NCBI GenBank assembly: GCA_019244185.1
Contig: JAFATB010000010.1
Coordinates: 32,001-96,000 of the forward strand
Direction: 5' to 3'
Length of the DNA stretch: 64,000 nucleotides
From: Acidobacteriota bacterium
Lineage (GTDB): Bacteria > Acidobacteriota > Thermoanaerobaculia > Gp7-AA8
A program made the position numbers and the translations under genes. Positions 3,697 through 7,569 of the stretch are shown one piece after another (position 1 is the first letter of the stretch; every line of letters begins with the position of its first letter). The notes beneath the pieces are model-generated. The model searched no databases and was not told where the DNA came from. It saw only the letters and a list, made by a program, of their open reading frames with translations.

Positions 3697-4965
3697 ATGC
3701 GACTGAATGTCACCAGTGAGATCGGCAAGCTGAAGAGCGTGCTGGTCCACCTTCCGGGGCGGGAGATCGATCAGATGATCCCGCCGATGATGGCGCAGCT
3801 CCTCTTCGACGACATCCTCTACGGACAAGTCGCGCGCGAGGAGCATCGCCGTTTCCAGCAACTGATCCGCTTCGTCGCCGACGACGTCATCGACCTGCAG
3901 GACCTGCTCGAAGAGACGCTCGACGATCCCGACGTGAAGCGGCGCATCGTGCGCGATCTCGCGAAGCGCAACGGCCTCGGGCGCAAGCTCACCGGCTCGC
4001 TCCTCGAGCTCACGCCCGCCGCGCTCGCGGAGGTGCTCATCGGCGGCATCGCGCGCGAGACCGGTAGCGGCGAGCTGCCGCAGTTCGAGCTCTTCCCGAT
4101 CCCGAACCTCTTCTTCATGCGCGACCCGCAAGTCGTCCTCGGCGACCGCGTCGTCATCTCATCGATGGCCACGCAGGCGCGCCGCCGCGAGTCGCTGCTG
4201 TCGAAGTACGTCTTCCAGTATCACCCGCGCTTCGGCACGCGCGATCCGTTCTGGGTCGACTTCATGACGTCCGAGCCCGAGCGGCCGATGCCGCGCTCCA
4301 CGCCGACGCTCGAAGGCGGCGACGTACTCGTGCCGCGGCGCGACCTCCTGCTCGTCGGCGTCACCGAGCGCACGAACCGCGCGGGCGTGATGGCGCTCAT
4401 GCGGTCGCTGAAAGAAGCGAACGCCGGCGTCGAGACCGTGATCATCGTCGACATCCCGCGGCAGCGCTCGTTCATGCATCTCGACACCATCTTCACCTTC
4501 ATCAATCGCCACGAATGCCTCATCTATCCGCCGGTGATTCTGCCGAGCGGCAGCCAGGCGGCGAAGGTGACGATGGTCGACCTCACGAAGAAGCGCACGC
4601 TCGCGTACTCGGAGCAGAAGTCGCTCCTCGGCGCGCTGAAGAAAAAAGGCTTCGATCTCGAGCCGGTGTATTGCGGCGGCAAGCGCGCTGTCGATCAGCA
4701 GCGCGAGCAGTGGACGGATGGCGCGAATGCGTTCGCGCTCGCGCCGGGGATCATCCTCCTCTACGAGCGCAACGTGCGCACGGCCGAGGAGCTGGCGACG
4801 CATGGATATCACATCATCTACGAGGACGATCTGCTCCTCGGGCGCACGGAGCTCGAGACGTGGACGGACAAGAAATACGCGCTGCAGATCGCGGGGAACG
4901 AGCTCTCGCGGGCGCGCGGCGGTCCGCGCTGCATGACCATGCCGCTCGAGCGCGAGGAGCTTTGA
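3697..4965 (+). CDS. arcA: Arginine deiminase
   Basis: SEIGKLKSVLVHLPG, LLFDDI, PNLFFMRD, LEGGD, FMHLDT, EQWTDGAN, ELSRARGGPRCMTMPL (catalytic Cys). Confidence 0.95.
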   Translation: MRLNVTSEIGKLKSVLVHLPGREIDQMIPPMMAQLLFDDILYGQVAREEHRRFQQLIRFVADDVIDLQDLLEETLDDPDVKRRIVRDLAKRNGLGRKLTGSLLELTPAALAEVLIGGIARETGSGELPQFELFPIPNLFFMRDPQVVLGDRVVISSMATQARRRESLLSKYVFQYHPRFGTRDPFWVDFMTSEPERPMPRSTPTLEGGDVLVPRRDLLLVGVTERTNRAGVMALMRSLKEANAGVETVIIVDIPRQRSFMHLDTIFTFINRHECLIYPPVILPSGSQAAKVTMVDLTKKRTLAYSEQKSLLGALKKKGFDLEPVYCGGKRAVDQQREQWTDGANAFALAPGIILLYERNVRTAEELATHGYHIIYEDDLLLGRTELETWTDKKYALQIAGNELSRARGGPRCMTMPLEREEL

Positions 4966-5919
4966 TTGGGCAAACGTGAGCAACCGCTGGCCGTCGTCGC
5001 ATTCGGCGGCAACGCGCTGCTGCGCCCCGAGGATCGCGGCACGCAGGAAGAACAGATCGCGCGCGCGAAGCAGGCCGCGCGCTGGCTCGCGGAGATCGTG
5101 CGCCATCACTACAAACTGATCGTCGTGCACGGCAACGGGCCGCAGGTCGGCAACATCCTCGTGCAGGCGGAAGAAGCGTCGACCAAGATCCCGCCGCAGA
5201 CGCTCGACGTCTGCGTCGCGCAGACCGAAGGCTCGATCGGTTTCATGCTGCAGCAGGCCATCCGCAATCGCCTCGAGGCGATCGGCGAGCGCGGCGAAGT
5301 GGCGACGATCCTCACCGAAGTCGAAGTCGATCCGAACGACATCGCGTTCAAGCGTCCGACGAAACCGATCGGACCGTTCTTCACGCGCTATCGCGCCGAA
5401 GCGCTCGAGCGCGACCTCGGCTGGACGATGCGCGAAGACTCAGGGCGCGGCTGGCGTCACGTCGTGCCGTCGCCAAGGCCGCTGCACATCCTCAACATCA
5501 AAACGGTGGATCGGATGCTCGACACCGCGTCGGTCGTGATCGCGGCGGGCGGTGGCGGCGTGCCGGTGGTGAAGGGCCGCGACGGCCAATGGCGCGGCAT
5601 CGAGGCGGTGATCGACAAAGACTTCGCGTCGGCGCTGCTCGCGTCGGAGCTCGAGGCGGACCTCTTCATCATCCTCACCGGCGTGCCGAAAGTGGCGATC
5701 GACTTCGGCAAACCGACGCAGCGTTTTCTCGAGCGGATGACGGTCGCGGAAGTCGAGCAGCATCTCGCCGACGGCCAGTTTCCGCCGGGGTCGATGGGCC
5801 CGAAGGTGCAGTCCGCGATTCAGTTCGTACGCGCGACCGGCAAAGAAGTGCTGATCACGGACGTCGAGGTGTTGCGCGAAGCGCTCGATGGCCGCGACGG
5901 GACGGTCATTGCTCCCTAA
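4966..5919 (+). CDS. arcC: Carbamate kinase
   Basis: VAFGGNALL, HGNGPQVG, PTKPIGPF, GGGGVPV, EAVIDKD, GSMGPKV; TTG start abuts the arcA stop. Confidence 0.95.
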   Translation: MGKREQPLAVVAFGGNALLRPEDRGTQEEQIARAKQAARWLAEIVRHHYKLIVVHGNGPQVGNILVQAEEASTKIPPQTLDVCVAQTEGSIGFMLQQAIRNRLEAIGERGEVATILTEVEVDPNDIAFKRPTKPIGPFFTRYRAEALERDLGWTMREDSGRGWRHVVPSPRPLHILNIKTVDRMLDTASVVIAAGGGGVPVVKGRDGQWRGIEAVIDKDFASALLASELEADLFIILTGVPKVAIDFGKPTQRFLERMTVAEVEQHLADGQFPPGSMGPKVQSAIQFVRATGKEVLITDVEVLREALDGRDGTVIAP

Positions 5920-5934
5920 CGTGGGGCCGGGCGT

Positions 5935-6447
5935 TTACCGCCAGTCGTGTGGCAGCTCGCGTTTGTCGCGACTCCATTTTCCCGCGCGCCCTTCGCAGAT
6001 GAGCATGCGCAGCGCGTCGTTGACGGCGGCTTCGTCGCGATAGAACTCCGCGATCACCGGCTCGATCGTGACCGTGATCGGCCCGCGCGCCTCGAATAGC
6101 GCGCCGCGGCGGGCTTTGCTCCAGTCGAGATGCGCGGTGGGATCCTCTTCCAGCGGTGCGTCGTGAATGCGATCTCCTTTCATGTATCGTCTCCTTTCTC
6201 GCGCGGCCGGAATGCGCGCGCTGATGATCCACGCGTTGCCGTCGCGGACGGTGTAGATGACGGCGACGAGGCGGCGTCGCACGGACTCGCCCATCGCGAA
6301 GTAGCGGTCTTCATCGTTCGAATGCTCGCCGTCGTCGACGTGCACGAGCAGCGGGTCGAGGAAGATCGTCTGCGCCTCGTCGAACGTGACGTAGTGCTTC
6401 CGCTCGTTTTCCTGGGCTTTGTCGACGTCCCAGCTGACGCTCTTCAC
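5935..6447 (-). CDS. Fused BrnT-family toxin / BrnA-like antitoxin
   Basis: Residues 1-88 show the BrnT (DUF497) pattern WDxxKxxxNxxKH..F.EA..F.DP..HS.DEDR..IISAR..ERRRY. Residues 89-170 resemble BrnA-like antitoxins (DWSKARRG...IEPVIAEFY.DEAAVNDALRMLI). No stop between them. Confidence 0.8.
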   Translation of the reverse strand: MKSVSWDVDKAQENERKHYVTFDEAQTIFLDPLLVHVDDGEHSNDEDRYFAMGESVRRRLVAVIYTVRDGNAWIISARIPAARERRRYMKGDRIHDAPLEEDPTAHLDWSKARRGALFEARGPITVTIEPVIAEFYRDEAAVNDALRMLICEGRAGKWSRDKRELPHDWR

Positions 6448-6448
6448 G

Positions 6449-6467
6449 CACCGAGGCTACCTCGGTG
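6449..6467. promoter_or_regulatory. Palindrome/hairpin just upstream of the toxin GTG start
   Basis: CACCGAGG-cta-CCTCGGTG; on the minus strand it buries GAGG and ends 1 nt before GTG 6447. Confidence 0.6.
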
Positions 6468-6470
6468 TTT

Positions 6471-6779
6471 CTAAGGCGCGCAATCGGGACAGAGGGCGCG
6501 GAGGCGTTCGAACGTCCAGATCCCATAGGAATGACCGTCCGCCCAGTTGAGCTGGAGGGCGTAATTGCCCACCGGTTCCACCGACTGTAGAGAGAACGAG
6601 TCGGTCGTATAAACCTGCGGGAGGCGTCCGGAGACGCGGCCGAAGAAATCGGACTCGCCGGAGCAGACCGCGCACGGGCACGCGCGGCGGAGCTCGTCGA
6701 GCGGGTAGTATGATTCGTGCCCGTCGTCCCAGACGACGACGAAGAGATTTCCGAGCACCTGATACGAACGTGGGCGCAT
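6471..6779 (-). CDS. DUF971 / gamma-butyrobetaine hydroxylase N-terminal-like protein
   Basis: WDDGHESYY..LRRACPCAVC, VGNYALQLNWADGHSYGIWTFERLR. Confidence 0.9.
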   Translation of the reverse strand: MRPRSYQVLGNLFVVVWDDGHESYYPLDELRRACPCAVCSGESDFFGRVSGRLPQVYTTDSFSLQSVEPVGNYALQLNWADGHSYGIWTFERLRALCPDCAP

Positions 6780-7569
6780 GCCGACTTACAGACTGACCAT
6801 CGAGTACGAAGGCACTCGCTACTCCGGTTGGCAGGCGCAGGGTAACACGCAGAAAACCGTTCAGGGCCATCTGCTGCGCGCCGCCCACGACATCCTCGGC
6901 GAGGTCGACCTCGGCGGCGCGGGACGCACGGACGCGGGCGTGCACGCGGTGGCGCAGGTCGCGCATCTCCGCACGCACAAGTCGGTCGAGCCGCTGCAGC
7001 TGATGCGCAAGCTCAACGACCTTCTGCCGCACGACATCAACGTGCTCGAGCTCTCGCGCACGCGCGACAACTTTCATGCGCGCCACGACGCCACCTCGCG
7101 CGTCTATCTATATCAGATCGCCACGCGCCGCACGGCGTTCGCGAAATCGTTCGTCTGGTGGATCAAGGACCGGCTCGACGTCGAAGCGATGGCGCGCGCG
7201 GCCGGCGCGGTCGCGGGACGCCACGACTTCAGCGCGTTCACCGACAAGCGCCTGAAGGAAGAAGACTCGCGCATCGTCGTCGTCGAGCGTTGCGAGCTCG
7301 CGCGCGACGGTGAGCTGATTCTCTTCCGCATCGCCGCGTCGCATTTCCTCTGGAAGATGGTGCGCAAGCTCGTGTCGATCCTCGTCGAGATCGGACGCGG
7401 CAACGAGACCGACATCGCGTCGCGGCTGCACGCGCGCGCCGAGCCGTACGCGCCGACCGCGCCGCCGTCGGGACTGTTTCTCGAAGCGATCGTGTACGAA
7501 GGCGAGACGTTCGAGCGGCCGCTCGCGCCGCTCATTCCGGTCGAGCGCTTCGTGAGGCCGCGGCGATGA
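6778..7569 (+). CDS. truA: tRNA pseudouridine(38-40) synthase
   Basis: YEGTRYSGWQ, GAGRTDAGVHA, FHARHDA, HDFSAF, FLWKMVR, TAPPSGLFL. Confidence 0.95.
   Translation: MPTYRLTIEYEGTRYSGWQAQGNTQKTVQGHLLRAAHDILGEVDLGGAGRTDAGVHAVAQVAHLRTHKSVEPLQLMRKLNDLLPHDINVLELSRTRDNFHARHDATSRVYLYQIATRRTAFAKSFVWWIKDRLDVEAMARAAGAVAGRHDFSAFTDKRLKEEDSRIVVVERCELARDGELILFRIAASHFLWKMVRKLVSILVEIGRGNETDIASRLHARAEPYAPTAPPSGLFLEAIVYEGETFERPLAPLIPVERFVRPRR

Follow-up and report, generated by a model that had tools for sequence, protein, structure and literature searches.

A one-gene BrnT toxin-antitoxin fusion of Acidobacteriota with a candidate inner start for its antitoxin and a leader hairpin shared across the family

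On the minus strand of a 64,000-nucleotide (nt) stretch of an Acidobacteriota bacterium (Thermoanaerobaculia, Gp7-AA8; assembly GCA_019244185.1, contig JAFATB010000010.1, positions 32,001 to 96,000; hereafter the window, G+C content 67.5%) lies a short gene in which a BrnT-type toxin and an antitoxin are joined in one open reading frame (ORF). The toxin domain, amino acids (aa) 1-88, runs without an intervening stop into an 82-aa antitoxin of the ribbon-helix-helix (RHH) type. At the seam between the two halves an in-frame ATG stands behind a sequence resembling a Shine-Dalgarno (SD) site, and the full-length frame opens with a GTG immediately behind a hairpin (Table 1). The analysis follows up a prediction made from the letters of the window alone (the original prediction), which read the locus as a BrnT-BrnA fusion with a nested internal start for free antitoxin; that interpretation is partly supported by what follows.

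Table 1. Features of the fusion locus and its nearest neighbours, in window coordinates
Feature	Position	Strand	Remarks
Toxin-antitoxin fusion gene	5935..6447	-	Single 170-aa ORF; GTG start; stop TAA at 5935-5937
Toxin domain, BrnT/DUF497, aa 1-88	6184..6447	-	Pfam PF04365; K17, H18, F29 and E84 present; W73
Antitoxin domain, aa 89-170	5938..6183	-	Aligns from M89 with stand-alone antitoxins; predicted RHH dimer
SD-like site GAAAGGAGA	6190..6198	-	Codons E84 R85 R86; AAAGGAG core ends 7 nt before ATG 6183
In-frame ATG (M89)	6181..6183	-	Apparent ancestral antitoxin start; candidate nested start
Second AAAGGAG	6174..6180	-	Codons K90 G91 D92, immediately 3' of the ATG; absent from the original prediction
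Full-length start GTG	6445..6447	-	3 nt past the 15-mer core, 1 nt past the 8-bp stem
Leader hairpin CACCGAGG-TAG-CCTCGGTG	6449..6467	-	8-bp stem; core 15-mer CCGAGGTAGCCTCGG at 6451-6465
DUF971 / GBBH-like_N gene	6471..6779	-	Upstream, co-oriented; stop TAG 3 nt before the hairpin stem; 23 nt between the genes
Amino-acid kinase family gene, carbamate-kinase-like	4966..5919	+	Convergent, downstream; ends 15 nt from the fusion stop

The N-terminal half is a member of the BrnT family. Residues 6-82 match the Pfam model BrnT_toxin (PF04365) with 75.2 bits against a cut-off of 34.5 (E 5e-21), the toxin profile matches the Protein Data Bank (PDB) entries 7vd7 (E 1.5e-15) and 3u97, BrnT (E 1.8e-4), and an AlphaFold2 (AF2) model of the monomer has local confidence values (pLDDT) of 83-91 through most of the domain. 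Many columns are invariant over 20 aligned sequences, and K17, H18, F29 and E84, all present in the window toxin, are invariant or almost so in the homologue alignment. Judged from motif position and numbering, these four would be the equivalents of K17, H18, F29 and E86 in the BrnT homologue Aave_1720, without which, according to the relevant passages of PMC10714953, toxicity or RNase activity is lost.

From its first Met on, the C-terminal half has homologues in stand-alone antitoxins encoded behind split brnT genes. Residues 89-170 align end to end with 19 such proteins of split brnT operons, M89 falling on their initiator Met, and M1, D20, R26, G27, V54, N55, A57, L58 and R59 of the 82-aa part are invariant in this alignment; by that comparison the half is of the type that serves many ordinary brnT operons as cognate antitoxin. 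With neither aa 89-170 nor aa 80-170 did Pfam return a match at E values up to 10, and hence none to BrnA_antitoxin (PF14384), and the NCBIfam BrnA model NF047399 gave 12.8 bits against a cut-off of 60. Because the stand-alone relatives likewise go unmatched by the Pfam and NCBIfam BrnA models (0/14), the antitoxin family would seem to be an unmodelled one. The family (loci L031-L165) partners many brnT genes across phyla, and in some of its members ~20 additional residues are inserted ahead of the RHH strand. A search of the PDB by sequence gave no true relative of the family; the HicB rows that it returned stem from one long sequence in the alignment.

The AF2 model of the monomer is of low confidence in the antitoxin half (pLDDT 40-65). 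Modelled in two copies, it scored 0.70 against 0.00 for the best control, with the runs agreeing in at least 88% of contacts and a partner pLDDT of at least 82; the mark of 0.70 was attained by 20 of the 30 proteins whose solved structures are same-chain pairs and by 1 of the 23 with single-chain structures. The modelled interface comprises residues 120-158, in which strand 123-128 pairs antiparallel with its copy and is followed by two helices (130-133 and 139-151), the RHH pattern. This score may reflect resemblance to solved RHH dimers, and binding is put forward as a prediction. The name 'BrnA-like' that the original prediction gave to this half thus holds for its position and predicted fold, and does not extend to the Pfam BrnA model.

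As a rule brnT and its antitoxin gene are separate and overlap in different frames (134 pairs, duplicates included), and a sequencing or assembly error of 1 or 2 nt that joined two such genes would therefore give exactly the picture seen here. Contigs from four sequencing runs, however, cover positions 5700-6900 with no gap at the junction or elsewhere, which answers the call of the original prediction for an indel check. Those of runs X1-X3, which are possibly the source of the window's DNA, are identical to it over this interval, and that of X4, from a separate study, represents a 96%-identical strain that differs at 46 of 1201 positions with 0 gaps and the frame kept. In the X4 strain ATG replaces GTG at start codon 6447, a change that leaves a start codon in place and so supports the annotated full-length start. 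Among the sequencing runs listed as holding this DNA, none was of RNA. Together with 28 distinct fused ORFs in which amino acids are conserved on either side of the junction, these gap-free contigs exclude an assembly error; the artefact explanation, to which we had assigned a vanishingly small probability, can be regarded as already refuted.

The fused homologues whose search the original prediction had called for came to light in two ways. A protein search gave 19 hits, comprising 17 full-length fusions (163-172 aa, 57-97% identity), one 195-aa relative and one protein with an internal deletion. Separate hidden Markov models (HMMs) of the toxin and the antitoxin were run over all stop-to-stop frames of 183 loci from relatives' genomes, Genome Taxonomy Database (GTDB) genomes and metagenomes; both domains occurred in one frame in 32 ORFs, or 28 distinct ones once the duplicate loci L021, L024, L025 and L049 are removed, alongside 157 toxin-only and 139 antitoxin-only frames. 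The union of toxin and cognate antitoxin in an uninterrupted ORF is thus real and conserved in relatives, chiefly Acidobacteriota: the named fused records are mostly Acidobacteriota or Thermoanaerobaculia metagenome-assembled genomes, with one from Nitrospira. In a tree of the toxin domain (166 rows, 87 columns, quick search) the fusions form a clade of 18 rows (clade A; SH-aLRT 98), a clade of 8 (clade B; SH-aLRT 95) and one singleton.

Two of the loci show rearrangements of their own. A metagenome contig (L107, ~1168-2829) carries a tandem array in which a single frame holds antitoxin, toxin and antitoxin domains and is followed by another complete fusion of toxin and antitoxin, which has a hairpin variant to itself (loop TAT). 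In L199 (genome G021, ~2020-2200) a near-perfect inverted repeat of ~160 nt, resembling a miniature inverted-repeat transposable element, separates a clade-B fusion from what is left of a clade-A fusion; over their last ~36 nt the two fusion genes do not differ, a sign that the copies may have recombined.

The split operons suggest how the fusion arose. Antitoxin-HMM frames lie directly 3' of split brnT in the 134 pairs counted above, and in 110 distinct pairs the antitoxin ATG falls in the last brnT codons, in another frame and typically 8-32 nt before the toxin stop. Its context is TATG in 70 of these 110, the ATG lying inside the toxin's Tyr-Glu codons (T-ATG-AA), and the Glu-Arg-Arg/Lys codons of split brnT, commonly GAAAGGA or GAGCGGAG, constitute the antitoxin's SD, with pairing of -5.9 kcal/mol or better in 56/110 (the anti-SD used throughout is a generic sequence, as no 16S rRNA was found in the assembly from which to read the host's own). 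Fused genes read TAT ATG or TAC ATG at the same place. A frame change of 2 nt at the TATG overlap would suffice to bring the antitoxin into the toxin frame, a step that we infer from the aligned sequences. The ancestor would then have been a two-gene operon with the antitoxin ATG within the Tyr-Glu codons of the toxin and its SD in the Glu-Arg-Arg codons, and the internal SD and ATG of the fused gene are, by this alignment, the ancestral antitoxin initiation site.

At the junction the minus strand of the window reads GAA AGG AGA CGA TAC ATG AAA GGA GAT, in which AAAGGAG (6191-6197) is followed after 7 nt by the ATG at 6183-6181; GAAAGGAG is the junction stretch treated as the SD of this inner ATG. 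The original prediction had pointed to this spacing and to the rare Arg codons that create the motif, and both observations hold: in 40 long window ORFs with high G+C at third codon positions (GC3), AGA and AGG account for 6% of the codons for Arg, and GGA for 11% of those for Gly. AAAGGAG occurs five times in the 64-kb window, two of them at the junction, against a mean of 2.27 in shuffles. Folding of the inner-start region is no stronger than in shuffled sequences (z +0.42).

The residue at the junction is Met in 28/28 fusions, at a position where canonical BrnT has Glu. The sole exception, in a further fusion (L188), is Val; its GTG codon, likewise a start codon, is preceded by GAAGGAGA. 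The nonamer GAAAGGAGA is identical in 8 of the 28, and strong anti-SD pairing upstream of the Met was found in 11, which are 10 of the 18 genes of clade A, none of the 8 of clade B and the Nitrospira gene. Of the internal SD and Met, whose conservation the original prediction proposed to test, the Met is upheld without exception among the 28 and the SD in a minority; the strong-SD share within clade A equals that of true two-gene operons (56/110).

Synonymous codon choice marks out the same few codons. Between positions -5 and +3 of the junction, compared with the rest of the fusion genes, AGR supplies 26/70 Arg codons (36/471 elsewhere), GGA 14/14 Gly codons (35/240), GAA 25/29 Glu codons (188/389) and TAT 17/23 Tyr codons (21/106), and GC3 lies at 0.14-0.43 against a mean of 0.72 elsewhere. 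A comparison column by column was confined to the 18 sequences of clade A, so that one tree applies to all columns. There, AGR was used in 20/27 cases at the two SD-forming Arg columns and in 5/112 at seven other conserved Arg columns, GGA in 14/14 at the Gly column of the second AAAGGAG and in 8/61 at other conserved Gly columns, and TAT in 15/17 at the junction and in 3/13 elsewhere. An Ile codon 5 nt past the second GGAGA is ATT in 10/15 against 10/45 at other Ile columns, and the mean anti-SD energy has its minimum at +2, that is, at this second GGAGA.

Three toxin-less derivatives retain the inner site. In G023 the toxin is deleted, and the junction ATG and the antitoxin frame are intact. 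At the same chromosomal site in G046 (L242) a short tandem duplication has frameshifted the toxin, and GAAAGGAGA, the ATG and the antitoxin frame are intact behind a hairpin with the loop variant TAC. The remnant in G021 keeps GAAAGGAGG, the junction ATG and the antitoxin frame. The nucleotides of the inner site are under selection, and the synonymous-site bias, the invariant Met and the one swap of ATG for GTG argue that the site is still used. On ancestry, invariant start codon and synonymous-site selection, a nested start that yields free antitoxin is a well-founded hypothesis, and one that we hold to be slightly likelier true than false. A literature search, its results judged by title and abstract, found no earlier description of a nested antitoxin start.

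A programmed frameshift at the junction was also considered and set aside: the heptamer A-AAA-AAG occurs in L003 only, a TGA in the +1 frame exists only where Lys follows the Met, and neither feature is conserved.

Ahead of the full-length start, the 8-bp stem of the leader hairpin is present in the minimum-energy fold (-33.1 kcal/mol for the 71-nt local fold, z = -3.5), and the only nearby GAGG lies in its 5' arm and ends 12 nt ahead of the GTG, in agreement with the buried GAGG described in the original prediction. Both the hairpin and the weak start are conserved. The palindrome CCGAGGNNNCCTCGG, with at most 2 mismatches, stands just 5' of the start in 24/28 fusions as against 4/141 split brnT genes with full upstream sequence, of which 2 are apparently genuine, and GTG is the start codon in 20/21 palindrome-linked fusions; the other genes behind the hairpin start with ATG in 21/31 cases.

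The spread of the element extends well past the fusions. The exact 15-mer (window 6451-6465; loci L184-L241) has one copy in the window's own genome, 86 copies in 30 of 35 genomes of the genus (reversed control 0) and, in an even sample of the class, is found in 43/48 genomes of the window's family as against 1/152 of other families. Among 63 distinct copies in the loci collected, 52 precede an ATG, GTG or TTG at -2 to +8 nt that opens an ORF of at least 60 aa, the distance being +3 or +4 in 39 of them; of 30 exact copies in viral contigs, which served as the chance control, just 2 precede a start and ORF (chance level). The hairpin-linked genes are not BrnT in 31 of the 52 cases, and Pfam identifies among these 31 five GIY-YIG proteins, three IS200-like Y1 transposases, two 23S-rRNA-intervening-sequence (23S-IVS) proteins, and one each of DUF559, an IS91-type transposase, Uma2 and an S24/HTH repressor-like protein. 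Others among the 31 encode pairs of small coiled-coil proteins, with one hairpin copy per gene.

The unpublished genomes G002 and G024 supply loci L010, L012, L186, L187, L214 and L215; without them the counts become 27 fusions, Met in 27/27, the palindrome in 23/27 and 28 non-BrnT hairpin genes, and the conclusions are unaffected. The likewise unpublished G164 and G199 count only in the family tally of the 15-mer, and no conclusion depends on them.

In 13/31 non-BrnT genes a GTAG, often as CTAC-N5-GTAG-A, stands 26-27 nt upstream of the palindrome; within the 40 nt 5' of the palindrome the motif occurs in L187, L193, L203, L204, L208, L209, L214, L226, L228, L230, L239 and L241. It could be part of a promoter or a recognition site. 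Relatives of the IS200-like (Y1) transposases, three of which are hairpin-linked here, act on hairpins with a nearby tetranucleotide. No common 3' boundary motif of a 'cassette' was seen after the stops of hairpin-linked genes. An Rfam scan of 5700-7000 at E values up to 10 gave four sub-threshold chance hits and none for the hairpin, and a scan of 5800-7100 found no sigma-70 promoter-like site and two terminator-like sites, on the plus strand, inside the fusion ORF. Readings of the leader by eye as an ECF- or sigma-54-like promoter were rejected, as the spacings misfit and transcription would begin inside the ORF; pairing of the hairpin's 3' arm with a CGAGG past the ATG was rejected too, being absent from the window's own sequence.

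The original prediction had allowed that the palindrome might be the antitoxin's own operator. That suggestion is rejected: the identical 15-mer stands before the 31 non-BrnT genes too, equally spaced from their start codons, and a hairpin common to unrelated genes is very unlikely to be the private operator of a fused antitoxin. From the distribution of the 15-mer the hairpin is a shared leader element of the family, not a BrnA-specific operator, which was the least expected result of the analysis. Its fixed distance to start codons, kept also ahead of the second genes of operons, points to a role at the level of translation or RNA, and its fixed sequence together with its restriction to the family points to a family-specific reader. 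A bolder reading is a translation gate dedicated to the family, CCGAGG-UAG-CCUCGG at 3-4 nt before starts, that would be read by a family-specific factor and would keep the expression of genes that are risky, selfish or of defence type low or conditional, such genes being those of toxins, GIY-YIG and DUF559 nucleases, IS200-like and IS91 transposases, Uma2 and 23S-IVS proteins; the fusion would then pair a gated long form with an ungated inner antitoxin start. We advance this gate as a tentative idea and rate it as rather improbable.

The explanation of the locus as a whole that we prefer, with somewhat more belief than doubt, is that of a genuine type II toxin-antitoxin module collapsed to one gene, which would make a little full-length fusion and more free antitoxin. 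A 2-nt frame change (TAT/TAC ATG) would have brought the antitoxin into the toxin frame. The 170-aa toxin-antitoxin protein would come in small amounts from the weak GTG, which stands 3 nt past the 15-mer core in a stable hairpin, its translation probably aided by ribosomes that end on the DUF971 gene 3 nt before the stem, and a larger amount of free 82-aa antitoxin would come from the retained internal SD and ATG. As both products would dimerize through the C-terminal RHH domain, the free antitoxin could buffer, and so neutralize, the fused toxin. Initiation of ribosomes at the inner ATG, the stoichiometry of the products, the translational coupling and the neutralization are the conditional parts of this scheme.

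Might the gene instead make one product only, a 170-aa fusion that acts as a cis-inhibited toxin until some trigger or proteolysis frees it, as happens in other toxin-antitoxin fusion proteins, with the purine-rich junction kept for linker coding, inter-domain ribosome pausing, mRNA stability or a binding site? We consider this possible, if rather less than probable. Published BrnT-BrnA fusions are handled as single proteins in the sections of PMC11980606 that concern them, and the fusion persists where the SD upstream of the Met is weak or absent, in 17/28 genes and all 8 of clade B. The second GGAGA is as constrained as the first and, lying 3' of the ATG, is unable to serve as its SD, so that the purine-rich constraint may have another cause. 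Both observations also weigh directly against the two-product scheme, as do several others. An SD of -5 or better precedes the first start in 9/40 long window ORFs, a figure too noisy, with uncurated start codons, to calibrate SD use in this organism. The toxin-less derivatives are perhaps just young decay products. The tree needs three state changes and is compatible with single or multiple fusion origins, and with more than one origin part of the apparent conservation of the Met may be repeated recent fusion; the 28 genes are moreover kin, and clade B is shallow, so that counts over them do not represent independent events. A hairpin that serves many genes may, finally, be a positive initiation element rather than a throttle. 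What a single product does not readily accommodate is that in every fusion the junction codon, GTG included, is a start codon at a place where canonical BrnT has Glu, that the constrained nucleotides are the ancestral SD at its ancestral spacing, and that the antitoxin-only derivatives start exactly at the junction ATG.

A further reading takes the module to be attenuated or domesticated: the toxin of the window's clade would be weakened by loss of the Arg of the RIISAR strand, and the gene would chiefly be a DNA- or RNA-binding regulator or an anti-addiction antitoxin at a fixed chromosomal site. The original prediction had remarked that the usual RIISAR reads WIISAR here, and W73 does take the place of the Arg, so that the strand departs from R-[ILV]-I-S-A-R. 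Two places ahead of I-S-A-R, Arg is present in 127/130 matched split BrnT proteins (9 further rows unmatched); in clade A the place is taken by W (7 rows), H (5) or R (3), with 3 rows unmatched, and clade B keeps R. The gene sits between housekeeping genes, at one locus, across many species of the genus, and toxin-less derivatives persist, both of which favour this reading. Retention of K17, H18, F29 and E84, whose counterparts are needed in the BrnT homologue treated in part of PMC10714953, and the numerous invariant columns of the toxin domain speak against it, and we rate a weakened toxin as distinctly improbable.

The surroundings of the fusion are of a housekeeping kind and do not form a defence island. 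On the plus strand, at 3697-5919, an arginine deiminase gene (Pfam ADI) and the carbamate-kinase-like gene converge on the fusion; upstream, the DUF971 gene is the neighbour in many fused loci. An empty site in G015, in which only 4 nt separate the stop of the DUF971 gene from that of the convergent kinase gene and both hairpin and toxin gene are missing, indicates that hairpin and ORF behave as a single insertion-or-deletion unit. The start codons of the DUF971 gene and of a divergent gene at 6778-7569 (+), which we take from its sequence to be truA-like, overlap at 6777-6779 as mechanically called, and either each promoter lies inside the opposite gene or one of the two starts is miscalled.

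The fusion is real and, as a kind, already known. With the two-gene BrnT-BrnA system of 2012, treated in passages of PMC10714953 and PMC11980606, it has in common the toxin fold family (PF04365, 3u97), the toxin-first order and a C-terminal RHH domain in the antitoxin; it differs in having one ORF instead of two, an antitoxin below the BrnA model cut-offs and W73 in place of a near-universal Arg. BrnT-BrnA fusions were reported in 'Mono- and multidomain defense toxins of the RelE/ParE superfamily' (mBio 2025, PMC11980606), whose Table 2 counts 28 prokaryotic and 4 eukaryotic examples, with BrnT followed by an RHH antitoxin in one polypeptide as in the window. The nine examples in part 4 of its supplementary file 3 belong to other lineages and have other antitoxin types, and the junction motifs of the window's clade were not found in the searched parts of the supplements. 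In the text of PMC11980606 the words 'internal', 'Shine-Dalgarno', 'start codon' and 'frameshift' have zero occurrences, and the leader hairpin goes unmentioned in its relevant passages.

CapRelEbc has likewise been termed 'a fused toxin-antitoxin system' in a passage of PMC13423816. The toxin of CapRel-type fused defence proteins is unrelated, being a tRNA pyrophosphokinase as opposed to an RNase here, and the window locus shows neither a phage trigger nor a defence-island context. To our knowledge, no nested antitoxin start has been described in CapRel-type systems. In Tn5, an in-frame internal start within the transposase gene yields an inhibitor that antagonizes the long product. Plasmid pIGRK encodes two in-frame Rep proteins, according to the part of PMC6854812 that describes them. 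These pairs resemble the proposed arrangement in that one ORF has two starts and the short product tempers the long one; they are not toxin-antitoxin systems, and the inner site of the fusion would be the relic of a formerly separate gene, not a newly evolved start. Leader hairpins that sequester an SD, and translational coupling of adjacent genes, are known mechanisms. As in such leaders, a GAGG lies here in the 5' arm of a stable stem beside the start, with the upstream stop 3 nt before the stem; unlike them, the sequence too is fixed, one 15-mer serves many unrelated genes of one family, and Rfam has no match. What is new here is the proposed origin of the fusion by a 2-nt change, the conservation of the inner start and the hairpin as a shared family element.

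Fused toxin-antitoxin genes pose a puzzle, in that the antitoxin must be in excess despite the one-to-one synthesis of the two halves. If the nested start is used, the retained inner site would solve it, as the ratio would be set by two initiation sites in one ORF. The comparison with split operons also traces the stepwise collapse of a two-gene module into one gene, from a 2-nt change in a TATG overlap to what selection retains afterwards. Were the gate to prove true as well, choice of initiation site alone would fix the toxin-to-antitoxin ratio, which could flip on opening of the gate. That a hairpin so sharply restricted to one family, invariant in sequence and tied to the starts of mobile and defence-type genes precedes these genes points to an undescribed layer of control over them in a poorly studied group of Acidobacteriota.

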